Part shown: positions 3-16,871 of the stretch, piece after piece
Numbering within the stretch: position 1 is the first letter of the stretch
Layout of the letters: the number at the start of each line of letters is the position of its first letter
Source: a virus
Direction: 5' to 3' (one strand)
DNA length: 64,000 bases
Virus record (IMG/VR): IMGVR_UViG_3300035670_000026
Location: 32,001 to 96,000 of that record
Position numbers and translations under genes: made by a program
Notes under the pieces: generated by a model
What the model saw: the letters and a program-made list of their open reading frames with translations, nothing else
Database searches by the model: none
Told to the model about the DNA's origin: nothing

Positions 3-1265
3 TTACGAGTTATTCAAACAGCAGGTGGTGTTAGTGGTACCGCTACTCGTAAAGCAATTAAAGATAATAATAAAGAACAATTCTTTCACCTCATTCCCGA
101 TATTCCTGAAAAAGAACAAGTTTGGGACATTGTGTCTCCTGTTATTAAAGAAGGTTTTATGGGAGATATAAAATCTAAATTTAATAAATTTATATCTGCT
201 ATTAAACAAGAAAACCAAGAAACTAAAGAGGTAGTTGGTTTATTGATTAAATCTGCTCAAGGTAAAATAGAATTAACAGATAAGGATAAAGAATATATAG
301 GCAACCAATTAAAAGATGTTTTAAAATTAATTGGTTTAACGGCAATTGCTACTTTGCCTGGTGGGTTTATTGCTGCTGCTTTAATTAAATTATTTAAGGC
401 CGAAGCATTAGTTACTCCATCTACTTTTGTAAATGAAGCAGATCCTAAAAAAGGAACAGGCAAAAAACCAAAAGGATCAGGCCGTAGATTATACACAGAT
501 GAAGACCCAAAAGATACAGTAGGTATTTCTTTTAAAACAAAAGAAGATATTGTTGATACTTTAAATAAAAAATCATTTAAAGCTAAATCACATGCTCGTC
601 AATCACAAATTATTAATTTAATACATCAACGAGTAAGAGCCGCTTATGGTAAAGCAAAAGATCCTGAGGTAAAAGCTCGTTTAAAAAGAGGATTAGATTA
701 TATTGAATCACGTAAAGAGGCATCTAAAGAAAAAACTCAACGTTTAAAAAATTTAAAAGAGATAGTAACAAATACAGAAGTTATTTGTGATAATTGTGGT
801 TGGAAATGGGATAAAGAAGATGGTGGAGATGATTTATATGTTTGTCATAAATGTGGACATGATAATACTCCAACTTCTTTAAAAGAAGGTTGGAATTTGC
901 AAGATGCTTTTGTATCTTTATCAAAATTCATGATGGTTAATGGGATGAATATCACCCCATTACCTAAAATTAAAACTATACCAGATGATAAAGAAAATGC
1001 ATCTAATCTTTTAGGTAAAACGGCTTATTATAATCCAACCGAAAAGTCTATTACTTTGTTTACAATGGATAGACACCCAAAAGATATATTGCGTTCATTT
1101 GCTCACGAAATGGTTCATCATGAACAAAATTTAGAAGGAAAATTAAATAATATTAACACAACCAATACAAACGAGAACGGAGATTTGCCTGAAGTTGAAA
1201 GTGAAGCATACGAAAAAGGAAATATAATGTTGCGCAATTGGGAAGATTCAATTAAAAATGTATAA
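3..1265 (+). CDS. 5'-truncated multi-module protein: end of a cytidylyltransferase-like domain, basic module, Zn ribbon, HExxH metallopeptidase-like domain
   Basis: Frame 3 is open from position 3 (LRVIQTAGGVSGTATRKAI, resembling the S-x-[ST]-x-x-R motif of HIGH nucleotidyltransferases) into ORF 132..1265. Also CDNCG..CHKCGH and HEMVHHEQ..E. Modules are separated by IKE/VNE/LKE. Confidence 0.6.
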   Translation, partial: LRVIQTAGGVSGTATRKAIKDNNKEQFFHLIPDIPEKEQVWDIVSPVIKEGFMGDIKSKFNKFISAIKQENQETKEVVGLLIKSAQGKIELTDKDKEYIGNQLKDVLKLIGLTAIATLPGGFIAAALIKLFKAEALVTPSTFVNEADPKKGTGKKPKGSGRRLYTDEDPKDTVGISFKTKEDIVDTLNKKSFKAKSHARQSQIINLIHQRVRAAYGKAKDPEVKARLKRGLDYIESRKEASKEKTQRLKNLKEIVTNTEVICDNCGWKWDKEDGGDDLYVCHKCGHDNTPTSLKEGWNLQDAFVSLSKFMMVNGMNITPLPKIKTIPDDKENASNLLGKTAYYNPTEKSITLFTMDRHPKDILRSFAHEMVHHEQNLEGKLNNINTTNTNENGDLPEVESEAYEKGNIMLRNWEDSIKNV

Positions 1266-1791
1266 ACTAACCGATTTATATAAACAACTTAAAGAGGAAA
1301 CAACTGAAGATCCTCAATCACAATATAAAATTTATTGTGATATGGACGGTGTTTTAACTGACTTTGATAAACGTTTTGAACAATTTGGAGGTATGCCTCC
1401 TCAACAATTTGAAAAAGAAAAAGGTAAAGAACAATTCTGGAACCTTATTGATAAGCAAATAGGTGTTAAATTCTGGGCAGGGATGCCTTGGATGTCTGAT
1501 GGTAAAGAGTTGTGGAATCATATTAAACAATATAACCCAACTTTATTATCTGCTCCTTCACGTGAAAATGAATCGCGTTTAGGTAAACGTGTTTGGGTTA
1601 AAAATAACATTCCGGGTACTCCTTTAATTTTAGCAGCAGCTGAAAAAAAGAAAAATTATGCTCGAAAAAATGCAATACTTATTGACGACAGAGTATCCAA
1701 TATTAACGACTGGAATACAGCCGGAGGTATTGGAATTCTTCATACATCAACAACATCAACATTAGAAAAATTAGCAAAATATGGCCTTTAG
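1258..1791 (+). CDS. HAD-family 5'(3')-deoxyribonucleotidase-like protein with N-terminal leader
   Basis: IYCDMDGVLTDF, ILIDDR, GGIGILH motifs; leader MYKLTDLYKQLKEE. Confidence 0.8.
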   Translation: MYKLTDLYKQLKEETTEDPQSQYKIYCDMDGVLTDFDKRFEQFGGMPPQQFEKEKGKEQFWNLIDKQIGVKFWAGMPWMSDGKELWNHIKQYNPTLLSAPSRENESRLGKRVWVKNNIPGTPLILAAAEKKKNYARKNAILIDDRVSNINDWNTAGGIGILHTSTTSTLEKLAKYGL

Positions 1792-2104
1792 AAGAGTAGT
1801 AATTAGCGGAGAAAAAGTACAAGATACAAAAACAGATCTTGAAAACTTCCTTTCAAATAAAATATTCAAAACCAATTATCCAGGTATGAAAACTAAACTT
1901 ATAGTTTCACCAGTTAAAAATGATACTATTGTAATTGATTTGAATGGTGACGGTGCTGATACAGTAGCTAAAAAAGTTAAAGATATTGGACAAAAATATA
2001 AAATGAAAGCTGTTATCAAGCTTGAAAAACCAATGTCTGCTGTTAAAGAAGTTAAAGTTACAAAAACAAAATTAATTGAAATTATTAAAAATTTCAACAA
2101 ATAA
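1781..2104 (+). CDS. hypothetical protein
   Basis: ORF overlapping neighbours, AT-rich codon usage. Confidence 0.7.
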   Translation: MAFRRVVISGEKVQDTKTDLENFLSNKIFKTNYPGMKTKLIVSPVKNDTIVIDLNGDGADTVAKKVKDIGQKYKMKAVIKLEKPMSAVKEVKVTKTKLIEIIKNFNK

Positions 2105-2676
2105 TGAATAACAATTCAGTTTTAAAAAAAGAGTTCAAACATAGAGATGTAGAACGTCTCCGTAATCTTGTCACGGGCAAGTACGGAGAAAAAACTACTA
2201 TGGGAACTGGTTATACAAAAGCAAAAGAATTTCACGATGAAGGCGATATTTGGGAAGAAGATGGTCGCACATGGACAATTAAAAATGGCGTAAAACAAAA
2301 TATTACAAAATTGGATAAGGCAAAAGAAGGTATTGTTTTACCTATTTTTTGTCCTTCTTGTTCTCGTACTATGAAACCTCATTTAGATAAAAGATGGTTT
2401 GTAATGTATGGACATTGCTTTGATTGTCAAGTAGATTTTGAACACGATCTTAGAAAACAAGGTAAACTTCAAGAATTTGAAAAACAAGTAACTAACCAAC
2501 ACTTAGAAGGAATGACTAAAGACTTTGAAGTTTGGTTTGATGAATTAATAAACGAAAAAAACCAATTTATCACTGAAAATGGTGATGTTGAAAAGTGGGA
2601 TGGTTCTGGGAAGGAACAGTTATTGAAATATAAACAAGAAGCACTAGAATATCTTAAAACACAGATTAAAGAATAA
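2104..2676 (+). CDS. hypothetical Zn-finger protein
   Basis: CPSC...HCFDC; TAATG coupling at both ends. Confidence 0.7.
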   Translation: MNNNSVLKKEFKHRDVERLRNLVTGKYGEKTTMGTGYTKAKEFHDEGDIWEEDGRTWTIKNGVKQNITKLDKAKEGIVLPIFCPSCSRTMKPHLDKRWFVMYGHCFDCQVDFEHDLRKQGKLQEFEKQVTNQHLEGMTKDFEVWFDELINEKNQFITENGDVEKWDGSGKEQLLKYKQEALEYLKTQIKE

Positions 2677-3299: not shown

Positions 3300-3514
3300 A
3301 ATTTAGATTAGGACCTTTAGAAAATGCTAGAACCTTTTATTCACCAAAAGGTAATACAACTGTAGTTAGGGACACGGTTGTAAATCAAACTCCACCCCCC
3401 CAACCCGAAACTTTACCCGAACCAGAAATTGAGGTTGTAATGAGTGGTGAACCAACATTAGAAATCTTAGCAGAAGAAACTCCTGCTCCTAAAAATATAA
3501 AATCTAAAAAATGA
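3296..3514 (+). CDS. hypothetical Pro/Glu-rich protein
   Basis: ORF with ATGA overlaps; ATATTTATA at 3231 upstream. Confidence 0.55.
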   Translation: MKFRLGPLENARTFYSPKGNTTVVRDTVVNQTPPPQPETLPEPEIEVVMSGEPTLEILAEETPAPKNIKSKK

Positions 3515-4866
3515 AAGACTTAAAGAAAATACAAGAATTTTTCTCTAATCCTTTAGAAGAAGAAAAATCATTCACAGACTATTCAAATAATGAGCTTTTA
3601 GCATACTATAAAAATACTAAAGATCCTAAAGCAAAGGGAGAATTAAATAAACGTGCTGAAAAAATTAAAGCTTTAACTAGAACAGATGTTAATGAAGCTG
3701 GGACAGGTGTTGATATGGCTAAAAAGCAATTAGATGCTTTAGGTGTTAAATATGAAATGTCAAAAACTGATAAAGTTAGACCATTCAAAGTAATTCACAA
3801 ACCAGTTAATAAATCAGATGAATTTTATGATAAATTTGAAGATATTGTTGATTTATTTAACTTAAAAGGTGTTGTAAAATCAGAAGCAGGATATGATTAT
3901 TCTTCATTTAAAGAATCAGTAAACGAACAAGCTGATCATGTATCTCCAATGGTGGTGAAAGCTTACAAAGAATACCTCCAAGCTAAAAAAGATGGGGATG
4001 GAGAAAAAGCATATCGCTACTATTCTAAAAAACTAAATAACACATACTCTACCAGAGCAGATAGAGATGCTATTGAAGCTATCTTAAAAAAGAAATATGG
4101 TAGTGCTTTTGACATTAAAGAATCAGTAAACGAACAAGAAGAAGATGCCGTTGATACAATTACAATGGATATTCCTTTATTCCTTCGTATGTTAGAATAT
4201 GCTAGAGAAGATGCTCAAAAAGACCTAGATTTACATGATGTTACCGAAAAAGCAAATAAATTAGGTAAAGAAAGAGGTATCTTATCTATGGAAGATTATG
4301 AAGAAATTGTAGGTGCTGCTGAAGAAATTGATGAAGCAGAATTAACCGAAGCTTATGTTCCTTCAAACATTAAAGACTTTGCTAAAAGAAAAGGTGTATC
4401 TTCTTTAGTTAATAAAGTAGCTGGTTGGGCTGAAAAAGTAGGTAAAAGAATTACTGGTGGAACTGCCATTGGATATAATTATTCCACTCTTATTTTAGAT
4501 ATGGAATACCAAGGTTCAGAAATTCGTATTAATACAGATAATGATACAATTGAGTTGTATGGTGAACCTGTTAGAAGTTTTAATGATTTTCAACGTGTAT
4601 ATATTGATGGGCAAGATGATAATATAGAAGAAAATGTTGCTCCTAATCACGATGGAAAAGCAGCACCTTATGGTTCTGGATACAAACCTTTAGAAGAAAA
4701 AATTGCTAAAGCATTAGACCAAATTAACGAAGAATTATGTCCCGCTGGTAAAGCATACATTAAAAGAAGATTAGCTGCTGGTGAAAAATCATCTGCTTAT
4801 CTTTCAGGCCGTGCCGTTAAAGTATGTAAAGGACAAATGTCTGGTACCTCTAAAAAGAAAAAATAA
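3511..4866 (+). CDS. modular putative internal head protein
   Basis: Leader MKDLKKIQEFFSNPLEE; modules bounded by VNE/IDE/LTE/IEE/INE; C-terminal basic module CPAGKAY..SAYLSG. Confidence 0.65.
   Translation: MKDLKKIQEFFSNPLEEEKSFTDYSNNELLAYYKNTKDPKAKGELNKRAEKIKALTRTDVNEAGTGVDMAKKQLDALGVKYEMSKTDKVRPFKVIHKPVNKSDEFYDKFEDIVDLFNLKGVVKSEAGYDYSSFKESVNEQADHVSPMVVKAYKEYLQAKKDGDGEKAYRYYSKKLNNTYSTRADRDAIEAILKKKYGSAFDIKESVNEQEEDAVDTITMDIPLFLRMLEYAREDAQKDLDLHDVTEKANKLGKERGILSMEDYEEIVGAAEEIDEAELTEAYVPSNIKDFAKRKGVSSLVNKVAGWAEKVGKRITGGTAIGYNYSTLILDMEYQGSEIRINTDNDTIELYGEPVRSFNDFQRVYIDGQDDNIEENVAPNHDGKAAPYGSGYKPLEEKIAKALDQINEELCPAGKAYIKRRLAAGEKSSAYLSGRAVKVCKGQMSGTSKKKK
3908..4138 (+). repeat. 24-bp perfect direct repeat TTAAAGAATCAGTAAACGAACAAG (3908-3931 and 4115-4138)
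   Basis: Identical copies 207 bp (69 codons) apart, each encoding KESVNEQ. Confidence 0.9.
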
Positions 4867-5156
4867 TGGACATTAATAGACTACAAGAAATAATTTCCGA
4901 ATCTTTACGTGACTGGTTTAAAAAAGAAGACTGGGTGCGCATTGATACTCAAGGTAATATTACTGGTCCTTGTGGTACTATGAAAAAAGGTGATGCTACA
5001 ACTCGTTGTTTGCCTCGTAAAAAAGCTCAATCATTATCTAAAGCTGAAAGAGCTAAAACTGCTCGTAAAAAAGCCGCTGGTTCTCGTAAAGGAAAACAAT
5101 TTGTAAAAAACACAAAAAAAGCAGAATACAAAAAAGGTACATACCAGAAAAAATAA
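4866..5156 (+). CDS. small basic protein
   Basis: IISE^SLRDWFKKEDWV..GPCG..RCLP; Lys-rich. Confidence 0.7.
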   Translation: MDINRLQEIISESLRDWFKKEDWVRIDTQGNITGPCGTMKKGDATTRCLPRKKAQSLSKAERAKTARKKAAGSRKGKQFVKNTKKAEYKKGTYQKK

Positions 5157-5182: not shown

Positions 5183-7447
5183 ATGGCAAAATTTGACTTT
5201 AAAAAAGCAATCCTAGAAAATAAAGCTACCTTTTTTGGTTCATTAAACGAAGGTCAATTTTCTTGGTTTACTCAAGATACAGATCAACAAATTGGATCAG
5301 AACCAGAAAATACTCTTCCTTTTGTTTACATGCACGATAATAAAGGCAATAAATGGTTAGAAAAAAATTATGATGGATATGGTGAATTTGGTGGTAAAGA
5401 TTACTATGAATTACTAGACCAAATGAATGGTGGTGATGGTGATAGAAGTAGAGGTATTGATTTAGCTTTTGATAAAGAAGCTGTTGCTACTGGTAAAATA
5501 TTATTTCCAGCACTAACTGTTAGTGCAACATTACCTTCATACCATAGTTTTAATGAAGAACCAAAAAATGACCCAAACCAATCTTGGTATACTCCTGAAG
5601 AGGATGATTTTTATGATCAAAATGATGAAGAGGAATATGGATATGATGAGGATTATGACGAAGAAGAATTAGATGAAGCAGAATTGCCTGTTTTAACTGC
5701 TGATCAAGTTAAAATGATTGCTCAACAAGTAGCAGATAAATTTTCTGCAACAGATGATTTAGATATTAAATTTTTAACCACCCCAGGTTCAGTTGAAGCT
5801 GACCCTAAAGGAGCAGGATTTGATCTTGATACAATTGCAGGACCAAACACCCCCGGTGACGATTGGAAAGATGAAAATGGATTTACTATTGACAATTATT
5901 TAGGTAAATACGCTGGTGGTTCTTATTATATTAAACCTGAAGGCGGTAAACATAAGATTTATAACGCCGCAGCACAGAATGCTTATATTGGACACGTTAC
6001 TCCTCAAGGTGAGGTAGTATTTGAAATTCCTGGTTTCGAAGGAACTATAGATCAATTAAACTTTCTTGAAGAAGAAAAACCAAAAACAAAAATGAAAAAA
6101 TCAGAATTAAAAGAACTTATTAAGTCATCTATCATGAACGAAGTGTATCTTGATATTGACAACATGGAAGATGCTCCTGAATCAGAAGTTGATTTCTTAG
6201 CAGAAGTTGATGCTATTTTAGCTGAAGCTGATAAAGTAAAAGAAGGTGTATGGTCAGTAGTACCCGCTCGTATCCCTGAATTTATTAAGGCCATTGAAAA
6301 TATCAAAGAAGAATACCACGGTATTGTAGGTAGTGATGATGTATACAATGGGTTAGATGCTGCCATTTCAGCTGCAGAAGAATTATTAATGAATACTGCA
6401 GAAATTAACGAAGCAGACGAAGAAGTAGCAGTAGATGATACTGAAGTAGCAGTTGATGGTGAAGAAAATATTAATGTTGATACAACAATAGAAGTTGATC
6501 CTAATGTAAAAGCAGTTCAAGATTCATTAACACAAGCTCAAGCAGCTGCTCAAAAATTAGGTGATCCTAAATTAACAGATCAAATCGGTAATACAATTAC
6601 ATTCTTTACTCGTGCACACGTTGTAGATAAAGGTGCTGTAGCTGAAGAATTAAATGAAGTAAAATCACTCTTATTTTCGTTTGATTACAATACAGATGAA
6701 GATGATGTGGACTACATCCAAGGTTTATTAAAAGATGCTAGAGTTAATGCGATTGCGCAACCTGGTCTTGAATCAGGCGAAATGATAGTTAAAGCAAAAA
6801 ATGAAGTTGAATTGCGTAAAGCTAAAAAAGTAATCCAAGCAAATGGATTTAAAATCTATAAATCAGTAGAGGAAGGTAAAGAAATGGTAAATGAAGATTT
6901 AGCATCAGCTCTTACAGCGCTTATAATTTCTATAATAGCCATCCCAGCTTTACCAATAACTGGAGCATTATTAATGGGATTAATTGACTATCTATTTAAT
7001 GACTTACCTGATCAAAGAGCTGAAGCAAAATCATTAAGATCATACAAGGGACCTGATAAGCAAGAAAAAGTTTTAGCTTTAGCTAAAGAAATTGAAGCTA
7101 AATTATCCCCAGGTAAAAAGAGATACTTAAAAACATTAGTTAATCGTATTGGTGCTTCTAAACTTGAAGACAAAGCTAGAGAATACCGCGAATTAGATAG
7201 ATATGCTTCATCCGAAAAATCTCGAATGGATCGTGGATTAAATGAAAATCTAAAAACTGATATTGAATCTGCTCTAGAAGATCTTCCTATTCCAACCAAT
7301 ATGGAAGAAGATAAAAAAGAATATTACAAAGATGCTGAATCAGATGATGCGGCACATATTAACGCATTAGAAAAAGACATGAAAGATGATAAAAAATCAT
7401 CAATGAATGAAGTTATGTTTCCAATGTTAAAAAGAATTTTAAAATAA
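5183..7447 (+). CDS. large acidic modular putative internal head protein
   Basis: Leader MAKFDFKKAILE; internal MKKSELKELIK at 6092; more than 10 [ILVM]xE sites. Confidence 0.65.
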   Translation: MAKFDFKKAILENKATFFGSLNEGQFSWFTQDTDQQIGSEPENTLPFVYMHDNKGNKWLEKNYDGYGEFGGKDYYELLDQMNGGDGDRSRGIDLAFDKEAVATGKILFPALTVSATLPSYHSFNEEPKNDPNQSWYTPEEDDFYDQNDEEEYGYDEDYDEEELDEAELPVLTADQVKMIAQQVADKFSATDDLDIKFLTTPGSVEADPKGAGFDLDTIAGPNTPGDDWKDENGFTIDNYLGKYAGGSYYIKPEGGKHKIYNAAAQNAYIGHVTPQGEVVFEIPGFEGTIDQLNFLEEEKPKTKMKKSELKELIKSSIMNEVYLDIDNMEDAPESEVDFLAEVDAILAEADKVKEGVWSVVPARIPEFIKAIENIKEEYHGIVGSDDVYNGLDAAISAAEELLMNTAEINEADEEVAVDDTEVAVDGEENINVDTTIEVDPNVKAVQDSLTQAQAAAQKLGDPKLTDQIGNTITFFTRAHVVDKGAVAEELNEVKSLLFSFDYNTDEDDVDYIQGLLKDARVNAIAQPGLESGEMIVKAKNEVELRKAKKVIQANGFKIYKSVEEGKEMVNEDLASALTALIISIIAIPALPITGALLMGLIDYLFNDLPDQRAEAKSLRSYKGPDKQEKVLALAKEIEAKLSPGKKRYLKTLVNRIGASKLEDKAREYRELDRYASSEKSRMDRGLNENLKTDIESALEDLPIPTNMEEDKKEYYKDAESDDAAHINALEKDMKDDKKSSMNEVMFPMLKRILK

Positions 7448-7453
7448 AAGTAT

Positions 7454-7624
7454 ATGAACACACAAGAAATTTTCGAAAAAATTGAAGCTTTATATGAATT
7501 ATTCAAAGCAGAACATGCTGGAAAATCAAAAGCCGCTCATGGTCGCGCTCGCAAAGCATTAGGTGAAATCAAAAAATTGGTAGCCGAATACAGAAAAGCG
7601 TCAATCGATGAAGATAAAAAGTAA
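7454..7624 (+). CDS. histone H1-like Hc1 family protein (not in the ORF track)
   Basis: Hand translation: MNTQEIFEKIEALYELFKAEHAGKSKAAHGRARKALGEIKKLVAEYRKASIDEDKK; the KAA-x-RARKA...RK-x-S signature matches Hc1. Confidence 0.75.
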   Translation: MNTQEIFEKIEALYELFKAEHAGKSKAAHGRARKALGEIKKLVAEYRKASIDEDKK

Positions 7625-8966
7625 TTTAACTGAAAAGAAGCTTACTAAAGCTGAATTAGAGGCAAGAGAAAAAGTAATTAAAGACTTAAAAAAAAATAAG
7701 TCTGCTCTTGTTAAACGCTACGGCAAAGATGCTGAAGCAGTTATGTATGGACGTGCAACAAATATAGCTAAAAAAATGGCAGAATCAGAAAATAAAAATC
7801 GCATTAAAGAGCTTGTTAAAAAATCTCTTATGCAGGAAGCCGACATCGAAGTAGATGCCGATAGATATGAAGGTGAACAAGAACTAAGTCAAGCATCTGC
7901 TATGTTGGATGATTTAGAAACCAAATTAAACAACCATGATTGGTTTTATATGATGGCTGATGACAATAGAGCTTACACTTCTGGTTCAGCTAAAGAAAGA
8001 GAAATTCGTGATTTAATTTCTAAACTAGAATCTATGGGTTATGGAAAAGAAGCAAAAGATATGTACAATGAAAAAGAACCATATTCAAAAGCTTTTGGTC
8101 GTGATTCTAAATTAAAAGAAGCTAAAGGTAAAGATATGGATAAAGATGGCGATATCGATTCAGACGATTACTTAGCTGCCCGCGATGCTGCTATTAAAAA
8201 GGCAAAAGGCGAAATAAAAGAAGATTGGGGTAGTTCAGATCAATCTATTATGAACCAAGGAATTCATAAAGATTTAGGTAATCCTACAGAATTTCCTTCT
8301 CCATTTGATCCTAAATTTGAATCAGCAGTTGAATCAGCTGTAGATTTTTATTGGGATGAATGGCCTGAATATAGAACAGATAGAGATGGTCTTATAAATC
8401 ATGCTAAAAAACTTTACTACAGAGCTTATTTTCCTGAAAAATTTGAAGGATTTATGAAAATGTTTGGTGAAAGTTTAAATGAAGATATCGATTTAGGTCA
8501 CCAAGATAATGAACCACATATGATTAAAGGCGAATTATACCATATAGGTAAATACGCTATGAAGTTATATGCTATTATGGAAGAATTAGAAGAAGCAGGT
8601 GGTGAATATGACCTTCCAGCTTGGTGGCAGTCAAAAATTACTACTGCTAAAAATATGATGTCAAGTGCTAAACATTATCTTGATTTCGAATTAAAAGAAC
8701 CAGCAATTGATGCAGCCGTTGATGCTTTAACAGGTGAAGAACCTCATATGGGTGAACCAATGATGGAAGCAGAAATTAGTGCTGAAGAAAAATTAGCAGG
8801 TAAAATTGCTAAAGCACTTAAGGATATAGCTAATAAAGATGCTTCTGATCAAAGTAACCTTAAACAAGCTAGAACAGCTTTAAATAAAGGTAATATTGAA
8901 GCTGCTAAAAAAATTGCAAAACCTTATATAGCTGAAAAATTAGCTAAGCAATTAAAATCTAAATAA
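7608..8966 (+). CDS. modular putative internal head protein with EF-hand-like loop
   Basis: DMDKDGDIDSDD loop; modules bounded by LTE, MAE, MQE, LKE, IKE, LNE. Confidence 0.65.
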   Translation: MKIKSNLTEKKLTKAELEAREKVIKDLKKNKSALVKRYGKDAEAVMYGRATNIAKKMAESENKNRIKELVKKSLMQEADIEVDADRYEGEQELSQASAMLDDLETKLNNHDWFYMMADDNRAYTSGSAKEREIRDLISKLESMGYGKEAKDMYNEKEPYSKAFGRDSKLKEAKGKDMDKDGDIDSDDYLAARDAAIKKAKGEIKEDWGSSDQSIMNQGIHKDLGNPTEFPSPFDPKFESAVESAVDFYWDEWPEYRTDRDGLINHAKKLYYRAYFPEKFEGFMKMFGESLNEDIDLGHQDNEPHMIKGELYHIGKYAMKLYAIMEELEEAGGEYDLPAWWQSKITTAKNMMSSAKHYLDFELKEPAIDAAVDALTGEEPHMGEPMMEAEISAEEKLAGKIAKALKDIANKDASDQSNLKQARTALNKGNIEAAKKIAKPYIAEKLAKQLKSK

Positions 8967-9445
8967 TGAAAAAAAGCGAATTAAGAGATAAAATTAAAAT
9001 GCTTGTACAAAAAACGTACAAAGCTAAGACCATTGATTTAGATAAAGGTGGTGAAGTTACTCTTGACGCTGAAAAATTTCCTGTTTTAACAAAATTTCCT
9101 AAACTAAAAAAAGTAATCGTAGATCTATTAACAGATCAATACGAAGTTTTTATGACCAATATTGAGTGGGTAGCACCACGACCAACAACTTTCCGAATTA
9201 TACTTGGTAACGATGAAAACTTTTTGTTGATTTATACCGATAGAAGCTGGATTGCTCAGGTTGAAGGTAAAAAGTATTATTTGTTAAACCTCGGCGAAGA
9301 AGAGCAAGCAGCCGAATCTATTTCAAGATTATTAGCATATGGCCAAAAAACAGAAACCAGCACCGAAACCAGCTCAGAAGCCGGTTCCGAAGAAACAGGG
9401 CAAGAAGAAGTAACAGCTTCCTCTGAAGAAGAAACTACAACTTAA
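8966..9445 (+). CDS. hypothetical protein with MKKSEL leader
   Basis: MKKSELRDKIK leader, acidic Ser/Thr tail. Confidence 0.7.
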   Translation: MKKSELRDKIKMLVQKTYKAKTIDLDKGGEVTLDAEKFPVLTKFPKLKKVIVDLLTDQYEVFMTNIEWVAPRPTTFRIILGNDENFLLIYTDRSWIAQVEGKKYYLLNLGEEEQAAESISRLLAYGQKTETSTETSSEAGSEETGQEEVTASSEEETTT

Positions 9446-9447: not shown

Positions 9448-10566
9448 ATGAATATATTTGATAAACTTATCAAAGAAATTTCTTATAAATTTCCAAAAGG
9501 ATATCTTGACATCGATGATGCTCAAGATGTTCTTTTTTTCCAATCAATATTAGAGTCAATAGGTATTGAACTTTATAATTCTATTTTAATTAACGAAGCT
9601 GCCGAAGATATCAAAAATGAACTTATTGATGCGGGTTATACTCCTGAAGACATTATTGTAAAAAGTAGTAAACAAATTCGTTTATTAACTAAAGGAAATG
9701 AACGTAAATCTACAATGGATAAATTGTTAAAAGATTTAGAAGGTTCACGTTACGATATAAATTTTAAAGGTTCATCCTTAGGTGCTATCATAGCAGATGA
9801 TGGGACAGCAATTATTGTTAAACCAAAAGAAAGACAAGGTGGTTTATCTGCTGGTTTAGATAATGAACAAATGCTTGTAGATAGCATAAACCAATATACC
9901 CAAGATGACCCAATCAACATCAGATTTAAAGGAATAAATAAATCTGTATCTTACAATGATGTTGCTTCAGCTAAATCTGTAGGTGCAGATACAGCAGGTG
10001 GTAAAAAAGCAGATGTTCAATTATTAGATAAAAGTGGTAGTGTTATAGCAAATATTTCTCTTAAAAAAGCAAACGCTGAAATGTGGGAAAGTGCTGATAG
10101 ACGTTATAAAAATTTAATGCTTAAATTATCTGAAAAACTTTTAGATAGCCCATTTCCAAATGTTGCTTTAAGAACAACAGATAAAAAAGATATATATCGT
10201 TTATATAACCCAGCAACCGGAACAGATTTAGGAGGTCTTGTAATTACAGATTTACCAGACAATGAAAATGAATCTATTGTATTTGGTACTGATAATCCAA
10301 AAACAATAGTTATCAAACATACTTTCCAACCTTCAGATTTTAGCTTTAATAAATCTATACTAACAATAGATTCAGGTACTATTTTTACTGATTTAAAAGA
10401 TATTGAAGGAACAAAATACGAACCTATATTAGTAATTAGACACGATGTAACTCGTACTGCAACTAATGGTTTACGTCCTATTGTTTATAATGCTTCTCAT
10501 GCTTATAAAGACGGTAAATTAGCTGGGGGGAGAACAGAGTTAACTTATAATGAAGCAATAAAATAA
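9448..10566 (+). CDS. putative PD-(D/E)xK nuclease-like protein with N-terminal leader
   Basis: NEQ...KADV...ISLKK pattern; leader ends LINE. Confidence 0.5.
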   Translation: MNIFDKLIKEISYKFPKGYLDIDDAQDVLFFQSILESIGIELYNSILINEAAEDIKNELIDAGYTPEDIIVKSSKQIRLLTKGNERKSTMDKLLKDLEGSRYDINFKGSSLGAIIADDGTAIIVKPKERQGGLSAGLDNEQMLVDSINQYTQDDPINIRFKGINKSVSYNDVASAKSVGADTAGGKKADVQLLDKSGSVIANISLKKANAEMWESADRRYKNLMLKLSEKLLDSPFPNVALRTTDKKDIYRLYNPATGTDLGGLVITDLPDNENESIVFGTDNPKTIVIKHTFQPSDFSFNKSILTIDSGTIFTDLKDIEGTKYEPILVIRHDVTRTATNGLRPIVYNASHAYKDGKLAGGRTELTYNEAIK

Positions 10567-10579: not shown

Positions 10580-11227
10580 ATGTGTGGCTGCGGATGTAAT
10601 ACTTGTGATACTAAAAAATCTGTGCTTATGCTTAATGAAAGTATAGCACCGCGTGGGATATTGTCTGAAGGTCTTAAATACCATATAGACAATAATAGAC
10701 CGCTTACTGAACAGACTTATCGTGCTGGTTCATCAAACTATTTTAACTTGTGGGCTGAAGCTCGCTCATTTTATTCTCGTGAAATTATTGAAGTTACAAA
10801 CGAGGATGATTTAGCTATCTTAACCGAAACCAATTTAGGTGAATATGGTACATTAGAAGATGGTACTCGTGTTCCTTTAGATTTTATTATGGAAGATGTT
10901 TATCTTGATTTAAATGAAAATTTAGATGAAGCTAAAAAATCACAAAAGAAAGATCCACCAATTGGAAAACCAATGCGTGATTCATCAGGTGGTAAAGCTT
11001 ATAAAGTATACGTTCGCGATCCTAAAACCAAGAAAATTAAAACAGTACGTTTTGGTTCAGGTGGTTTAAAAGCTAAAATCAATAATCCTAAAGCACGTCA
11101 AGCATTTGCTAAACGCCATAAGTGTTCAACACGTAATGATAAAACAAAAGCTTCTTACTGGTCTTGTCGCTTGCCTCGTTACGCTAAATTGTTAGGATTA
11201 AAATCATCTTTTTCAGGATTTTGGTAA
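10580..11227 (+). CDS. modular protein with basic C-terminal domain
   Basis: MCGCGCNTC start; LNE/LSE/LTE/LDE sites; YKVYVRDPKT..VRFG..FAKRHKC..YWSCR. Confidence 0.7.
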   Translation: MCGCGCNTCDTKKSVLMLNESIAPRGILSEGLKYHIDNNRPLTEQTYRAGSSNYFNLWAEARSFYSREIIEVTNEDDLAILTETNLGEYGTLEDGTRVPLDFIMEDVYLDLNENLDEAKKSQKKDPPIGKPMRDSSGGKAYKVYVRDPKTKKIKTVRFGSGGLKAKINNPKARQAFAKRHKCSTRNDKTKASYWSCRLPRYAKLLGLKSSFSGFW

Positions 11228-11556
11228 TGATAAAATTATTAAATATATTAAATGAAGCAAAAAAAGTAAAAGAAACTTTTGAAAATTTTGCTGAAAAAAG
11301 AGGCGAGGGTGCTGCTAAAATAGCTAAAACCGCAGAGGAAAAAGGTGGTTTAGCACTTTTAACTTGGCATCATTTTAAAGTTAAAGCTCCCTATTATAAA
11401 AAAGCAACTGAAGGTAAATTTGATAAAGAAGCTGCCAAAAAAGAATTTGAGAATACATTAAAAAGTATTTCATTAAACATGACTCCAATTGAATTTCAAA
11501 GAGAGGTTGGTCGTTTAGAGGTACTAGGTGAATTATTAATTAGAGATAAAAAATAA
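11227..11556 (+). CDS. hypothetical protein with leader MIKLLNILNE
   Basis: ATG at 11227 coupled to the upstream TAA (TAATG). Confidence 0.7.
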   Translation: MIKLLNILNEAKKVKETFENFAEKRGEGAAKIAKTAEEKGGLALLTWHHFKVKAPYYKKATEGKFDKEAAKKEFENTLKSISLNMTPIEFQREVGRLEVLGELLIRDKK

Positions 11557-11559: not shown

Positions 11560-11997
11560 ATGAATACATTTGATTTAAGAAGATATTTAGTTGAAGGTAA
11601 ATTATATGAAGCAGCAATGGCTTGTCCTTTACCTACTCAAGATTTAGAACTAAACACCAAAAATAGAGACTCAGCTATCAAAGCAGATTATATTAAATAT
11701 GGTCCTTTAAATGTTGATGAACCTGGAGATTTTTGGGACGAATTAGCTGAACACTGGGATACAACAGTTGAAGCAGCTAAACAATCACTTTGTGCAAATT
11801 GCGCTGCTTTTGATATTTCTCCTAGAATGGATGATTGTATGCCCGGTCCTTTATCTGATGAAGATGGAAGATTAGGATATTGCTGGATGCATAGTTTTAA
11901 ATGCCATTCAGCCCGTACTTGTAGAACATGGGCTAAAGGTGGTCCTATTGTAAAAGATACTATTTCTTACGAGTGGCAAGAACGTAAAGGAGAATGA
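11560..11997 (+). CDS. Cys/His-rich hypothetical protein with leader MNTFDLRRYLVE
   Basis: CANC, GYCWMH-x-FKCH, CRTW; probable metal binding. Confidence 0.7.
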   Translation: MNTFDLRRYLVEGKLYEAAMACPLPTQDLELNTKNRDSAIKADYIKYGPLNVDEPGDFWDELAEHWDTTVEAAKQSLCANCAAFDISPRMDDCMPGPLSDEDGRLGYCWMHSFKCHSARTCRTWAKGGPIVKDTISYEWQERKGE

Positions 11998-12254: not shown

Positions 12255-12862
12255 AATCAATAGATACATTTGATTTAAGAAAATTTATAACTGAAGGACA
12301 GTTAGAAAAAAACTTACAAGAAGTTGATATTAACTTAGATGATAAAGAACAATCCGTAGTTGATGATGTAAAAGACGAAATGTCTGATATATTAAAAACT
12401 ATGGATACTGAATTAGCTAAAGCATCTGAATCTACCAATGAAGGTTTATTAACTGTAGCTAGTATTGCTATTGCATTACCTGCTATTATGGGACTAATTG
12501 CTAAATTTGGTAAAGCAGCGGGTAATATGGTTAATAAAGTTTTAGGTAAAAAACCAACAGACCAAGATGCTTATCAACAATGGATGACTAAATTAGGTCA
12601 TATTGCTGATGAATTACATCATTTGTATATGGCTCCAATTGAATCAATTGTTAAAAAATTTGTTAAAGATCCTGTAAAAGCTAAAAACGTATCAAGTGGT
12701 ATTTTTCACGTAATTGTAGCAACATTTTTAATAGCATCAGGAGCAACAGCCGTAAAAGCTTTACAATCTAAAAACTTATCTTTAGCAACTTTAGAAGGCG
12801 CTTTAAGTGCTATTAAAGGGGGAGAATTAAAACAATTTATCTCAGGACTAATTAGAGTTTAA
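12251..12862 (+). CDS. hypothetical protein with leader DTFDLRKFITE and hydrophobic helices
   Basis: Leader shared with 11560; hydrophobic LLTVASIAIALPAIMGLIA and IFHVIVATFLIA segments. Confidence 0.7.
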   Translation: MKSIDTFDLRKFITEGQLEKNLQEVDINLDDKEQSVVDDVKDEMSDILKTMDTELAKASESTNEGLLTVASIAIALPAIMGLIAKFGKAAGNMVNKVLGKKPTDQDAYQQWMTKLGHIADELHHLYMAPIESIVKKFVKDPVKAKNVSSGIFHVIVATFLIASGATAVKALQSKNLSLATLEGALSAIKGGELKQFISGLIRV

Positions 12863-12895: not shown

Positions 12896-13375
12896 ATGGC
12901 TCAACAATTTTACCATATAGCATGTTTAAACGAAACCCAAGCAGATTCATTAGGTCGCGGATTTATTTCGGCGTCTTTAGGAAATACTTCTGGTTTTAAA
13001 GCAGTAGCTATAGAAGATGCTTCCTTTCCAGAGTGGCAAATAGCAAATGTTATAACTTATGGTGTTGCTACACCTTTATCAGCCATCCAAAAATTATTTG
13101 ATCTTTCAGGATACGTTCAAGCACCGTTTGTTGCTATTATGCCCATATTTAGTAGCTCAGGTGCCAAATTAACATCTTGTAGATTGTACCAATTTGAAGA
13201 CCAAAATGATTTTTTAACCAATGGTTGGAAAATACCAGCAATAGATGGTAATCCAATTCAACCTTCAAAAGCACCTTTTGTAGATATTCCACAAGGAGTT
13301 TCTACTATTTCGGCAAATGGAGGTTTATTATATTTTTACGACACCAACTTTTCACAAAACTCAATTTTAAGTTAA
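12896..13375 (+). CDS. hypothetical protein (probable paralog of 13382)
   Basis: ATATTTATA at 12870; YHI..., KAVAIED, GGLL. Confidence 0.7.
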   Translation: MAQQFYHIACLNETQADSLGRGFISASLGNTSGFKAVAIEDASFPEWQIANVITYGVATPLSAIQKLFDLSGYVQAPFVAIMPIFSSSGAKLTSCRLYQFEDQNDFLTNGWKIPAIDGNPIQPSKAPFVDIPQGVSTISANGGLLYFYDTNFSQNSILS

Positions 13376-13381
13376 TAAATT

Positions 13382-13792
13382 ATGCCATCATATCATATAG
13401 GATCATTTGACCAAGCAGTAGTAGATGCTATGCCCCCAAGCGGAAAAATAGTAGCAATTCAAAATAATCCAAATAATAATAATAAATGTGTTGCTTATGA
13501 TGATACTGATTTTAATAATTTTGGAGTTAGTAAGGCTAAAACTCAACAAGTATTCCCACTTGCTGCTACAGTATACTGGACTGTAATGCCATATAATAAT
13601 GAAGGAGTATGTTTATATTGTTCATTCCCAACATTATCAGATCTTCTAAACAATGCTCAATTTACCCCAGATTTAGGTGGTGGAGCTATAGGAGGAGGCA
13701 CATTTGGTACAGTAGATGATGTAGCGATTTATTTATCAAATATAGGGGGAATGTTAATTATACCAACAGGTATTCCTTATGTAGGACCTTAA
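13382..13792 (+). CDS. hypothetical protein (probable paralog of 12896)
   Basis: YHI..., KCVAYDD, GGML. Confidence 0.7.
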   Translation: MPSYHIGSFDQAVVDAMPPSGKIVAIQNNPNNNNKCVAYDDTDFNNFGVSKAKTQQVFPLAATVYWTVMPYNNEGVCLYCSFPTLSDLLNNAQFTPDLGGGAIGGGTFGTVDDVAIYLSNIGGMLIIPTGIPYVGP

Positions 13793-13853: not shown

Positions 13854-13884
13854 TGTGGCCTCCAATTTGGAGGCCACATTTTTT
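13854..13884 (+). terminator. intrinsic terminator
   Basis: TGTGGCCTCCA-ATT-TGGAGGCCACA-TTTTTT. Confidence 0.85.
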
Positions 13885-13897
13885 GTTTGTATATTTA
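13866..13897 (+). promoter_or_regulatory. Bacteroidota sigma-A-like promoter
   Basis: TTTG(13866)-N20-TATATTTA(13890), close to the -33 TTTG / -7 TAnnTTTG consensus. Confidence 0.5.
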
Positions 13898-13916
13898 AAT
13901 GTTAAACTTGTAATAA

Positions 13917-15278
13917 ATGAAGAGAATTGTAATTGTAGGAGCTGGAGTTGCAGGAGTAAATGCAGCAACTAAACTTGTAGATAATGGTTATCCTGGAGAA
14001 CTAATCACAATCATTGATATGGGAAAAGATCCATACCAACGCAAACCAGAAGAAGTAATGACTGGTTTCCTAGGTGCAGGTGGTTGGTCTGATGGTAAAC
14101 TAACTTATCACACAGCAATTGGAGGACAATTATCAAAGTATTGTGGTGAAGAAAAAGCAATGGAATTGATGGATCAAGTAATTACCAATTTCAAACGTTT
14201 TCATCCTAAACCTGAAGAAGTACAATGTTCAAATCCTGTCGAAGAACCTGAATTTATTAAACCATATTTTGGTTTACGTTTATTTCCAGTATGGCACGTT
14301 GGAACAGATTATCTATCTGAAATTGCTAAAAATTGGTACGATTATTTAGTATCTAAAGGTGTACAATTTATTTGGGAAACTAAAGTATATGCTATTGATT
14401 TTGAGAATTGTAGAGTATTAGCTAATTCATTAATAGAAAAATTAGAATACGAACGCAGATACGATGAATTAATTTTTGCAGTAGGTAAATCAGGTATCGA
14501 TTTTGCTCAAGAATTAGCCCAAGAATATAAACTTCCCGACGAACCTAAATCAGTTCAGATTGGTGTACGTTTTGAAGCCCCACAAAAACACTTCCAAAAG
14601 TTGATTGACATCAGCTATGACTTTAAGTTGTATCGTAAGTTTGAAGATAAAGGTGTTTCGCTTCGCTCATTCTGTACAAATAACAATGCTGCTTATGTTG
14701 CTGTAGAGGAAACCTATGGAGATCACAGTTACAATGGTCACGCTAAAAAAGACGAAGCATATAGAAATAATATGACTAACTTTGGTATCTTGATGGAAAT
14801 TAATGGTATTGAAGATCCATTTACTTGGTCACGTGAAGTAGTAAATAAAGTACAAGCAAACGGAACTGGTTTGTATTATAGTCCATCTCGTAAACCATCT
14901 ACTACCTCTGAAGGTAATAATGTAACTTCAACTCAAATTAGTTTAGATACACTTGTTCATGTTGTAGAACCTGCAATGGGTGGTTATTTTAAATATGTAA
15001 TGGATTTTATTATGGATATGAAAAAAGTATTCCCAACACTTCAAGATGATTGGGGTATGTATATTCCTGAAGTAAAATATTTGTCACCTGAGGTTAAAGT
15101 AGATTATAATAATTTAGCATTAGCTGATTATTCAAATGTACATTTTGTGGGTGATGCTTTGAGTGCTCGAGGTATTACAGTATCAGGAGCACAAGCGATT
15201 TATGTTGTTGAATCTATGCTTGGAGAATGGAAAAAACATGTGTATCTTTTAGATCAAGGAACAGGAGATTTATTTTAA
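13917..15278 (+). CDS. FAD-dependent oxidoreductase (uncharacterised dehydrogenase family)
   Basis: IVGAGVAG Rossmann motif, GAGGWSDGKL, SFCTN, PEVKY, VGD...RGI. Confidence 0.85.
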   Translation: MKRIVIVGAGVAGVNAATKLVDNGYPGELITIIDMGKDPYQRKPEEVMTGFLGAGGWSDGKLTYHTAIGGQLSKYCGEEKAMELMDQVITNFKRFHPKPEEVQCSNPVEEPEFIKPYFGLRLFPVWHVGTDYLSEIAKNWYDYLVSKGVQFIWETKVYAIDFENCRVLANSLIEKLEYERRYDELIFAVGKSGIDFAQELAQEYKLPDEPKSVQIGVRFEAPQKHFQKLIDISYDFKLYRKFEDKGVSLRSFCTNNNAAYVAVEETYGDHSYNGHAKKDEAYRNNMTNFGILMEINGIEDPFTWSREVVNKVQANGTGLYYSPSRKPSTTSEGNNVTSTQISLDTLVHVVEPAMGGYFKYVMDFIMDMKKVFPTLQDDWGMYIPEVKYLSPEVKVDYNNLALADYSNVHFVGDALSARGITVSGAQAIYVVESMLGEWKKHVYLLDQGTGDLF

Positions 15279-15283
15279 AAATT

Positions 15284-15535
15284 ATGGAAAATCATAAATA
15301 CACCCCCGCAAAAAAACTTATTAAAGCTGATGGTACTATCGCTTATGTATTTGACAATAAACTTCACAATTGGGAAGGTCCAGCATTAATTCCAGAAGGT
15401 GATATGCGTAAACGTGAATACTATCTTAATGGTATTCAACTTACAGAAGATGGTTGGAAAGAAGCTCGTAAAAATAGAGAAGGATTGCCTTGGTATAAAC
15501 AAGCTTCATCAAAAGGAGGCACAAACAGATTTTAA
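15284..15535 (+). CDS. small protein with an LHxxxGPA...YYLNG unit
   Basis: Start more plausible at ATG 15284 after the previous stop; KLHNWEGPALI..EYYLNG. Confidence 0.65.
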   Translation: MENHKYTPAKKLIKADGTIAYVFDNKLHNWEGPALIPEGDMRKREYYLNGIQLTEDGWKEARKNREGLPWYKQASSKGGTNRF

Positions 15536-15536
15536 A

Positions 15537-15920
15537 ATGGGACACAAATATGAACCAATACCCCGTAAGGGAGATACATACAAAAAAGCTTGGGGACATG
15601 AGCTTTGGATTGTTAACGATGATGAATATTGTGGTAAACTTCTAGTGTTTAATAAAGATAAAAAATTTTCTATGCATTATCATTTGATTAAAAAAGAATC
15701 ATGGTATGTTGCTGAAGGGGAATTTGAATATAGTTGGTTAAACACAGAAACAGCTTCCCACGAATCAACTGTGATTTGTCAAGGAGATGTTGTAGATTTA
15801 GAACGTGGACAACCTCATCAATTAAGAGCACTTACAGAAGGAGCTACAATTTTTGAAGTATCAACCAAACATTACGAAGAAGATAGTTATAGAGTACTAC
15901 CAGGATCATCACAATTATGA
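15537..15920 (+). CDS. cupin (sugar isomerase-like)
   Basis: KAWGHELW..YCGK..SMHYH..KKESW..PHQL; start at ATG 15537. Confidence 0.8.
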   Translation: MGHKYEPIPRKGDTYKKAWGHELWIVNDDEYCGKLLVFNKDKKFSMHYHLIKKESWYVAEGEFEYSWLNTETASHESTVICQGDVVDLERGQPHQLRALTEGATIFEVSTKHYEEDSYRVLPGSSQL

Positions 15921-16447
15921 AAATAGGTTTTTGCGGAACAATGTCAGTAGGTAAAACAACGCTTGTTAATGCGTTGAAAGAATTACCTGAATTTAAAGAT
16001 TATACATTTAGAACAGAACGTTCAAAGTATTTAATGGAATTAGGCATTCCTTTGAATACTGATTCAACATTAAAAGGTCAATGTATATTTCTAGCTGAAC
16101 GAGCTAGTGAATTAATGTGTGAAAATATTATTACAGATAGAACTGTAATTGATATTATTGCATTTACTAAAGCAGCTAAATCAATTGATTACCATGAAGC
16201 TGAAGATTTTATTGCTTTAGCCACACGTTTACTCCCCGAATATGATTATTTATTTTATGTTTCACCTGAAGGAGTAGACATAGAAGACAATGGGGTTCGT
16301 GAAACTGATCAAGAGTACCGCGAACTGATCGACTTTATTATAAAACATCAATTAAAGACACATAAGTGGAAGATTAAAAATTTAGTAAATATTAAAGGTT
16401 CTACTGAAGAACGTATTACACAGGTGAAATCTGTCCTTTCTTTATAA
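15917..16447 (+). CDS. P-loop NadR/AAA_28-type kinase/ATPase
   Basis: GTMSVGKTT Walker A, ITDRT, DNGVR. Confidence 0.8.
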   Translation: MKIGFCGTMSVGKTTLVNALKELPEFKDYTFRTERSKYLMELGIPLNTDSTLKGQCIFLAERASELMCENIITDRTVIDIIAFTKAAKSIDYHEAEDFIALATRLLPEYDYLFYVSPEGVDIEDNGVRETDQEYRELIDFIIKHQLKTHKWKIKNLVNIKGSTEERITQVKSVLSL

Positions 16448-16469
16448 TATTTATATCCAAAATACTGCA

Positions 16470-16871
16470 ATGAAAAAATCAGAAGCTAAAGAATATATTA
16501 AAGAACTTATTATTTCTGAATTAACAGAAGTTGATACCGATAAAACTCGTGGTACTGTAGTAATGCCTAAAGCAGCTAACCCACAAGATATTAAAAAAAT
16601 GACTGATCAAGGTGTTGATGTAGAATTAAAAGAAGAAGAAGAAGATATTGAACCAACTGCAAAAGATATTGCAGCTAATGCTTCAATTGCTAAACTACAA
16701 TCTAAGTATAGTGAAGTAGTTAAACAAATGAAATCAGTAGTAAATAAGTACAAATCAGCTGAAGGTACTGAAAGACAAAAATATGTTGATCAATTAAAAG
16801 GTTTAACTAAGCTTAAAAAAGAATTAGAAGCTATGATTAATCCTTCTCTTGATGACGAAGATCAAGATTAA
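16470..16871 (+). CDS. hypothetical protein with leader MKKSEAKEYIKELIISELTE
   Basis: Late motif at 16447; leader shared with 6092 and 8966. Confidence 0.7.
   Translation: MKKSEAKEYIKELIISELTEVDTDKTRGTVVMPKAANPQDIKKMTDQGVDVELKEEEEDIEPTAKDIAANASIAKLQSKYSEVVKQMKSVVNKYKSAEGTERQKYVDQLKGLTKLKKELEAMINPSLDDEDQD

Follow-up and report, generated by a model that had tools for sequence, protein, structure and literature searches.

Why do so many otherwise unrelated proteins, encoded next to the head genes of a T4-like phage, begin with similar short peptides? The question is raised by the 24 genes at positions 3-16871 of the stretch of DNA analysed here (IMG/VR record IMGVR_UViG_3300035670_000026), a window of 64,000 nucleotides (nt) that corresponds to bases 32001-96000 of a single 149,817-bp contig from an uncultured T4-like aquatic phage. 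An original prediction had described amphipathic leaders, usually ending in [ILV]-x-E, on these open reading frames (ORFs), had seen in the long ORFs strings of modules joined at similar sites, and had proposed a large arsenal of polyproteins that are packaged in the head, cut by the prohead protease and injected with the DNA. Our analysis distinguishes four interchangeable families of leader peptides, one of which appears to repeat the C-terminus of the phage's own scaffold protein, and encounters the same peptides as junctions inside long proteins. With somewhat more confidence than doubt, we read these leaders as T4-style capsid-targeting and processing signals on prohead cargo and polyproteins.

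In aquatic environments, Far-T4 phages rank among the most abundant phages, and for the majority of their genes no function is known. Sequence identity of the major capsid protein of the contig amounts to 65% with Flavobacterium phage vB_FspM_immuto (immuto), the nearest cultured relative, to 46% with Microcystis phage Mel-JY01, to 35% with Rhodothermus phage RM378 and to at most about 31% with classical T4-like phages. Judged by these identities of its gp23-like capsid protein and by its T4-like head genes, the phage is a member of the Far-T4 group (PMC4360716). No near-identical DNA was found in cultured phages. The called genes of the contig lie nearly all on one strand, and the phage encodes its own chaperonin GroEL/GroES.

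Unrelated proteins share interchangeable leaders

Fifteen of the 24 genes of the cluster possess an [ILVM]-x-E motif ending within the first 22 residues, compared with 7.4 expected by shuffling (p about 5e-4); in the rest of the window this is the case for 15 of 38 genes (8.9 expected). A recognisable leader is present on just about 11-12 of the 24 genes and is lacking from genes 13917-16447 (oxidoreductase, cupin and P-loop kinase; genes are designated by their first nucleotide in the window) as well as from several small ORFs. The leaders quoted in the original prediction were all confirmed at the starts of their ORFs. In order to quantify sharing, residues 2-26 were compared for all pairs of 260 cargo families without homology to one another, drawn from this genome, from immuto and from 80 related viral contigs (terminase identity 77-96%). 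After removal of signal peptides, 119 pairs of N-terminal 25-mers reached a score of at least 35 and 91 a score of at least 40, compared with 12 and 3 pairs of internal 25-mers, 14 and 3 pairs of C-terminal 25-mers, and 2 and 0 pairs of shuffled N-termini. Sharing of leaders between unrelated ORFs, as it had been claimed, is thus borne out by 91 pairs against 0-3 in the controls.

Clustering leads to four leader families, A to D, each with a hydrophobic-x-Glu end. The consensus of type A is M-x-N-F-D-L-K-K-Y-L-A-E-G-K-L; type B comprises about 20 residues, starting with M-K-K-S-E-L-K and ending in I-L-S-E; type C has the core Q-K-L-A-G-I-I-T-E, and type D reads M-I-K-L-x-D-I-L-K-E. Among 14 leaders of type A, F4 and E12 do not vary, and the same holds for Q-x-x-A-G-I-I-x-E among 7 leaders of type C. 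Within the window, type A leaders are found on 5183, 11560 and 12251 and a subtype, A2, on 3511; type B occurs on 8966 and 16470 and also internally in the 5183 ORF, and type D on 1258 and 11227. In immuto, at least nine genes carry leaders of types A, B and C. Matches to the hidden Markov models (HMMs) of the leaders were N-terminal in 19 cases and internal in 2 for type A, 78 and 5 for type B, and 14 and 1 for type D. In nine loci for which both flanks of the terminase gene are available, 15 of the 133 genes in the 10 kb upstream carry a leader, compared with 1 of 87 downstream, and this sole downstream gene is located between protease and scaffold. A literature search for the leader motif strings found no paper.

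No shared regulatory DNA was found ahead of the leaders, the upstream DNA being unrelated. Biased, AT-rich codon use makes leader DNA fairly similar; within the genome, leaders differ at synonymous codon positions and vary in their residues, while the hydrophobic pattern and the Glu are kept. The unrelated upstream DNA and the differing synonymous codons indicate, therefore, that selection acts on the leader peptide.

The same cargo can be found behind different leaders. The 12251 protein has a type A leader in the window and in three related contigs (L005, L007, L033), and a type C leader in three others (L013, L017, L020) and in most of 88 metagenomic orthologues, the cargo of which is 77-87% identical. 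Similarly, the 11560 cargo follows a type A leader here and a type D leader in L010, L020 and L040, and in the 10580 family a leader is present in some relatives and absent from the window copy. In orthologue alignments the first two 10-residue blocks, which make up the leader, have identities of 0.64 and 0.56, and the next 10-20 residues are hypervariable (0.09-0.17); for the 8966 protein, conservation amounts to 0.65 in the leader and 0.14 in the linker. An AlphaFold2 model of the 12251 protein has an unpacked segment at residues 1-29 (predicted local distance difference test below 50), followed by a confident helical bundle (predicted template modelling score 0.72). Cargo turnover is very fast between close relatives. 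The protein at 22935 provides a further case, its leader being the best-conserved part among 28 homologues and, judged by eye, the one among the window leaders that most resembles the capsid-targeting sequence (CTS) of T4.

One leader family repeats the end of the scaffold protein

The type C core, in the form of either R-W-Q-K/T-L-A-G-I or R-F-K-K-L-A-G-I and followed by 0-4 residues, closes each of the 26 scaffold homologues. The scaffolds of immuto and Microcystis phage Mel-JY01 likewise end in this core, a search with the type C HMM leads to the C-terminal ends of scaffold homologues, and in immuto a type C leader matches the scaffold tail at 12 of 15 positions. Outside scaffolds the motif runs on into I-x-E in 123 of 124 copies, a sample biased by the presence of the Glu in the query profile itself; the scaffold copies end there. 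On the strength of these alignments, the type C leader is best described as a copy of the scaffold C-terminal peptide.

The type B leader and the scaffold N-terminus have a five-residue run in common, and in T4 the leaders of IPII and IPIII, as read from the genome, resemble the N-terminus of the scaffold gp22. From these resemblances we infer that the address part of the leaders originated from scaffold ends. A direct scaffold homology of cluster proteins was not found, BLASTP detected no similarity between the scaffold and T4 gp22, and the best match of the type A HMM in T4, to gp22 with a score of 4.5, is not significant. T4 gp22 (L084:4118-4927) contains an internal W-L-A-E-N-K-L, six residues of which are identical to the type A core.

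The same peptides join modules in long proteins

A search of 5.8 billion proteins with the type A leader profile gave 1,556 matches at E<=10 among 8,000 candidates scored, and the following counts of modules rest on the best 120 of them (E<1e-11). Two or three full leaders are present in 48 of these 120 proteins and two to five copies of the core L-A-E-G-K-L-L-K-E in 73. Internal cores that lack the first half of the leader, and thus consist of the junction only, number 76, compared with 0.04 expected. The median spacing, and hence the module size, is 106 residues, and internal full leaders mostly retain their Met. The same pattern is observed for type C in metagenomes, where an 858-residue chain consists of a leader, a 2H phosphoesterase, an NT5C nucleotidase, a second leader and a third module. 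Polyprotein P0121 unites these three modules, with the fused phosphoesterase and NT5C domains placed between two type C leaders, and NT5C domains with type C leaders occur in both P0121 and P0134. Occasionally the tags are also situated at C-termini. The internal junction of P0016, at residue 260, can be aligned with the leader at the start of 195-residue proteins that are encoded separately in contigs L088-L090, where their genes sit in a cluster syntenic with that of the window. An AlphaFold2 model of P0012, a protein with two leaders, is of low confidence.

The long ORFs of the window follow this picture. As originally proposed they are modular, they swap pieces with relatives, and shuffling among related phages is seen at the leaders and junctions. 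In the cluster the motif [ILMV]-N-E occurs 20 times where 5.8 are expected (3.4-fold, z 5.5); in the rest of the genome there are 52 against 40 expected. From its internal type B leader onwards, at residues 304-414, the 5183 ORF matches the beginning of 178-residue proteins that relatives encode as separate genes. The predicted enrichment of hydrophobic-x-Glu at module boundaries was weak in a shallow test with 80 loci, in which 20 of 64 breakpoints lay at such sites compared with 13.1 expected (p 0.03). This test was replaced by a deeper one with 120 shorter homologues of the 754-residue ORF at 5183, and here 12 breakpoints recur, of which 8 are no more than 4 residues away from an [ILMV]-x-E (background 0.22, p 0.001), among them all of the five largest breakpoint clusters (residues 297, 341/348/354, 410, 488/492 and 709). 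Breakpoints of this ORF are not enriched at [ILMV]-x-K, [ILMV]-x-D, [AGST]-x-E or [DEKN]-x-E.

Genes of the cluster and of the head module

The features of the window are compiled in Table 1. Searches of Pfam, PHROGs and PDB sequences returned almost nothing for most cluster proteins, and matches to known families are limited to the nucleotidase at 1258, an FAD oxidoreductase at 13917, a cupin at 15429 and a NadR-type P-loop kinase at 15917.

Table 1. Features of the leader cluster and of the adjoining head module (aa, amino acids; positions in nt of the window).
Feature	Position	Strand	Remarks
C-terminal 420 aa of 559-aa multidomain ORF	3..1265	+	starts 414 nt before the window; amphipathic leader outside the window
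NT5C-type 5'-nucleotidase	1258..1791	+	13-aa type D leader (1258-1296), acidic linker, HAD fold
451-aa modular ORF	3511..4866	+	A2 leader (3511-3561); four [ILMV]-N-E sites
96-aa very basic protein	4866..5156	+	12-aa leader ending in I-S-E (4866-4901)
754-aa polyprotein-like ORF	5183..7447	+	type A leader (5183-5251); internal type B, Met at residue 304 (6092-6142)
452-aa modular ORF	7608..8966	+	recurrent breakpoint at about residue 290, beside L-N-E at 292
159-aa protein	8966..9445	+	type B leader (8966-9007)
372-aa protein	9448..10566	+	conserved N-terminal module of ~40 aa, common to several divergent C-terminal domains
215-aa Cys-rich protein in two halves	10580..11227	+	L-N-E at residue 113
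109-aa protein	11227..11556	+	type D leader (11227-11256)
145-aa Cys-rich cargo	11560..11997	+	type A leader (11560-11610)
203-aa helical-bundle protein with two very hydrophobic helices	12251..12862	+	type A leader (12251-12295)
133-aa protein	16470..16871	+	20-aa type B leader (16470-16529); two genes upstream of large terminase in relatives
Large terminase	17453		start of head module, adjoins leader cluster
Portal	19050		after large terminase; followed by four small or medium genes, then protease
202-aa protein in gp67/gp68 slot of head module	22935..23543	+	leader 22935-22973
Prohead serine protease, T4 gp21 family	23547..24152	+	Peptidase_S77 (PF03420), Pfam E 5.5e-30
Acidic scaffold protein	24375..25535	+	last ~13 residues (25494-25532) are the motif copied by type C leaders
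Major capsid protein, gp23-like	25570..27330	+	predicted maturation cut after E60 (V-T-E, codon 25747-25749)

The cargo labels of the original prediction fared unequally: the nucleotidase stands (phrog_2643, E 2e-30, matching from residue 21; type D HMM score 13), and the labels 'nuclease-like' and 'metallopeptidase' correspond to weak matches. The ORF at 3-1265 combines a nucleotidyltransferase-like domain, a hydrophobic hairpin, a basic stretch, a Zn-ribbon and an HExxH part; the last matches Peptidase_M91/DUF6782 weakly (E 0.01) and no MPTase family by Pfam. In L089 a homologue of this ORF is fused to the nucleotidase, and its immuto homologue is annotated as NadR/NMN adenylyltransferase. 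A NadR-type AAA_28 kinase (15917-16447, E 3e-12) adjoins the cupin (15429-15920), and together with the nucleotidyltransferase-like domain of ORF 3-1265 these genes might possibly constitute an NAD-salvage theme.

The basic C-terminal module of the 3511 ORF is common to other genes and is fused in L010 to a homologue of the next gene, so that the leader of 4866 sits internally in the fused protein. The 4866 protein itself resembles T4 internal proteins in size and charge and belongs to PHROG families without an assigned function. In addition to its seven [ILMV]-N-E sites, the 5183 ORF has acidic linkers and a hydrophobic hairpin. The homologue of 8966 is fused within an 841-residue ORF in immuto. 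For the 372-residue protein at 9448, a likeness to restriction endonucleases is a weak match, and this protein may lie outside the leader system. Relatives of 10580 have an added N-terminal leader and up to ~400 residues inserted at the L-N-E at residue 113. Without its leader, the 11560 cargo resembles genes annotated as 'high potential iron-sulfur protein'; an 11560-like gene of Actinomycetia phage DSL-LC01 (L092:4659-5393) adjoins three 'capsid maturation protease' genes and a 3,290-residue ORF, and among the neighbours of 11560-like genes in other phages a single weak S78 protease match was found.

When PDB was searched by Foldseek, the 12251 model had no real match. Very hydrophobic Ala/Ile/Leu-Pro-rich helices of a similar kind are encoded at ~800-870 (ORF 3-1265), ~6905-6990 (5183) and ~12450-12520 (12251), and these three segments may be membrane-active elements of ejected proteins. 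The adjacent leaderless proteins at 12896-13375 (159 residues) and 13382-13792 (136 residues) have no family match. T4-type late promoters (TATAAATA) occur just 7 times in the genome and are uninformative; one copy of TATAAATA is located 14 nt ahead of the 12896-13375 gene. In L089 (11489-13849) two genes are inserted into that of the FAD oxidoreductase, at 13917-15278 in the window, and divide it into two ORFs; the start of one of the inserted genes resembles a GIY-YIG homing endonuclease. The 16470 protein has no family match and no match in cultured phages. Outside the window, at genome positions 108583-109146 (L094:584-1147), a 187-residue protein with a type C leader matches Pfam Acb1, a 2H phosphoesterase directed against the cyclic-oligonucleotide-based antiphage signalling system (CBASS), with E 1.3e-5, and 2_5_RNA_ligase2, in both cases just below threshold.

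In the head module, the gp21 homologue that had been predicted is indeed a member of Peptidase_S77 with a highly significant match. It has L-I-E at residues 5-7, similar to the near-N-terminal site of T4 gp21 which has been named 'LIE-9' (PMC9026906). The V-T-E|N of the capsid protein aligns with L-T-E|A of T4 gp23 and L-R-E|S of gp24, and conservation among capsid protein homologues falls directly past this site. The gap between protease and scaffold (24153-24374, 220 nt) has as its sole ORF an implausible one of 57 residues; in immuto and L058 the gap holds small genes with A-like and C-like motifs. The large terminase of L089 (16549-19293) comprises 914 residues, with a ~370-residue insertion, possibly an intein, between the parts that match residues 5-267 and 243-522 of the window enzyme. 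At 34000-46000 of the window, the G+C content is 41-48%, compared with about 31% elsewhere, and coincides with the genes for fibres of 2,568 and 1,142 residues.

Possible function of the leaders

Since one of the tags copies the scaffold tail and tags join modules in long proteins, their probable role is to bring cargo into the head and to designate the places where the head protease cuts. According to this proposal, the cluster upstream of the terminase would encode prohead cargo. The amphipathic half of a leader would act as an 'address' that binds to the assembling scaffold core or to the inner face of the capsid protein, and the hydrophobic-x-Glu end, often doubled, would be a 'cut site' read by the T4-type S77 prohead protease. 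In the long ORFs the same peptides, or the cut-site half alone, stand between modules, and therefore one addressed chain would bring several modules into the head. At maturation the chain would be cut apart; acidic linkers would leave the head, and those modules that are basic, hydrophobic or enzymatic would be retained and pass into the host together with the DNA. Binding, packaging, cleavage and injection of the tagged proteins are steps that we infer from the comparisons described above. The packaged polyprotein system of the original prediction is thus upheld in part, by the shared leaders, the S77 protease, the shuffling of modules and the position upstream of the head genes.

Several observations weigh against this proposal. 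Roughly half of the 24 cluster genes lack a leader and resemble ordinary enzymes, so that speaking of a large arsenal was an overstatement. A few tagged genes are remote from the late region (genome positions 2495, 108583 and 143213), several tagged proteins are enzymes of a metabolic type (nucleotidase, nucleotidyltransferase, 2H phosphoesterase) that could have their place of action in the cytoplasm, and the type B protein at 16470 could, from its position, be small-terminase-like or terminase-associated. Hydrophobic-x-Glu is a short motif that is common in Lys/Glu-rich helices, the top-hit lists used for the Glu counts are biased by a query profile that already contains this residue, and families A-D have no detectable homology to the T4 CTS. 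The long ORFs are largely highly acidic, which would be better suited to core material that is expelled than to cargo that is retained. Neither virion proteome nor N-terminal data were found for this phage or for immuto.

The main rival explanation regards the tagged proteins not as effectors but as expendable components of the core: they would be auxiliary scaffold or core proteins that co-assemble with the scaffold by means of end peptides resembling its own and that help to set the head size or fill the prohead. Like T4 gp22, gp67 and gp68, they would then be cleaved and expelled ahead of DNA packaging, and nothing functional would be injected. Acidic stretches of low complexity, which recall T4 gp67 and the scaffold of the window, the many cut-type sites in each chain, the derivation of tags from the scaffold and the lack of a recognisable enzyme fold in most modules are all as this explanation would have them. 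However, some tagged modules are clearly enzymes (NT5C, Acb1-like 2H phosphoesterase, nucleotidyltransferase), basic modules like those of internal proteins and membrane-active-looking ones are present, and the very fast turnover of cargo among close relatives is unlike that of structural scaffolds. We hold this explanation to be unlikely, albeit worth serious attention.

The other two explanations fit less well because of the identity with the scaffold tail and the Glu-specific breakpoints. If the peptides were docking tags for a partner outside the prohead, such as the chaperonin, a site on the membrane or a factory for replication or assembly, with the Glu as a residue of a binding helix and not part of a cut site, one would understand why some tagged genes lie outside the late region, why tagged enzymes would be of use in the cytoplasm and why the phage encodes a chaperonin. 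It would be left unexplained that a tag equals the scaffold C-terminal peptide, that tags cluster beside the head genes, that just the Glu-containing half persists at internal junctions and that breakpoints follow [ILMV]-x-E and not [ILMV]-x-K or [ILMV]-x-D; we consider this explanation improbable. Still less probable seems to be that the leaders are mainly recombination linkers which promote the exchange of cassettes between co-infecting phages and whose encoded peptides are tolerated spacers. Fusions, fissions and swaps do occur exactly at leaders, and the AT-rich codon bias leaves leader DNA fairly similar, but paralogous leaders differ at synonymous sites and in residues with the hydrophobic pattern and Glu kept, upstream DNA is not shared, the interchange of four unrelated leaders on the same cargo is not predicted by homology-driven exchange, and the identity with the scaffold tail finds no explanation.

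Returning to leaders as capsid-targeting and processing signals, a broader model suggests itself, which we put forward tentatively and with more doubt than conviction: Far-T4 phages might employ a plug-and-play code for capsid loading, in which several interchangeable peptides derived from scaffold ends, each an address together with a cut site, would stand at N-termini and at the joints of polyproteins; by way of these peptides, fast-changing sets of small modules and counter-defence enzymes would be packed, cut apart and delivered along with the DNA. The Acb1-like phosphoesterase, the nucleotidase and the NAD-salvage enzyme would be candidates for enzymes delivered ready-made. If this is true, some counter-defence enzymes would be delivered in finished form and not made after entry; a short sequence rule would flag which of the unknown Far-T4 proteins travel in the virion, and natural, diverse cargo-loading tags would become available for capsid engineering. 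The copy of the scaffold tail would, in addition, point to the docking principle of capsid-targeting sequences and to the docking site of the address on the head, where a review of T4 merely infers an affinity of the CTS for the core (PMC9026906). The proposal is directly testable because a cultured relative exists, immuto, which grows on Flavobacterium sp. LMO8.

Comparison with known systems

The concept of the T4 CTS (PMC3012670, PMC9026906), polyvalent proteins (PMC5512222) and the processing of propeptides in giant phages are known already, and what appears to be new here is the copy of the scaffold tail, the interchangeable leader families and the repeated junction peptide. The T4 CTS comprises 10 residues, of which residues 4 and 7 serve targeting and residues 8 and 10 processing (PMC9026906), and the T4 prohead protease cleaves after L/I-x-E (PMC9026906, PMC3012670). 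On IPI, IPII, IPIII and Alt, the CTS is likewise a short N-terminal peptide common to unrelated proteins, with a targeting part followed by hydrophobic-x-Glu, and the bipartite layout of the leaders described here mirrors the dissection of the T4 CTS (PMC9026906). Further likenesses consist in the S77-family protease, the same order of head genes, a capsid protein site at the position of the gp23 cut and the resemblance of the T4 CTS to the N-terminus of scaffold gp22. In contrast to T4, with essentially one leader family, four sequence-unrelated and interchangeable families exist here, one of which copies the scaffold C-terminus; the tags are also internal junctions of polyproteins and occasionally C-terminal, and about a dozen tagged genes, known from sequence alone, lie in one cluster beside the terminase.

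Polyvalent proteins are multidomain chains of conflict-type enzymes whose genes lie among late or virion genes; prediction has it that these chains are packaged, reach the host along with the DNA and are set free by proteolysis (Iyer et al. 2017, PMC5512222). Similarly, several unrelated conflict-type domains per chain are encoded among late genes here (ORF 3-1265, the L089 fusion and P0121). However, release of polyvalent proteins is ascribed to embedded peptidases, mostly of the zincin-like MPTase kind, whereas the junctions described here match the motif of the prohead protease. Modules here are about 100 residues long and mostly of unknown fold, and an explicit repeated leader or junction peptide does not form part of the description in PMC5512222.

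In the giant phages phiKZ, 201phi2-1 and SPN3US, many proteins from inside the head are processed by a gp21-like protease, which cleaves after Glu, and their propeptides contain multiple redundant sites (PMC9026906). The motif is S/A-x-E in these phages and hydrophobic-x-E here, and accounts such as PMC9026906 describe neither a shared short leader family nor repeated junction peptides; the giant-phage data stem from experimental proteomics. In the paper on the Far-T4 group, internal proteins, prohead and scaffold are unmentioned (PMC4360716).

For the copy of the scaffold tail, a further likeness may be seen in peptides that copy or act like the capsid-binding end of a scaffold, if the scaffold tail of this phage, as is assumed, binds the capsid protein. 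In SaPI1 CpmB, as compared with the 80alpha scaffold, and in the cargo-loading peptides of encapsulins, a short terminal peptide binds to the inner face of an HK97-fold shell, and on unrelated proteins such peptides bring them inside or redirect assembly. These peptides are located at the C-terminus and are not cleaved off by a protease, whereas the scaffold copy in the Far-T4 phage is found for the most part at the N-terminus or internally, with a cut-type site after it.

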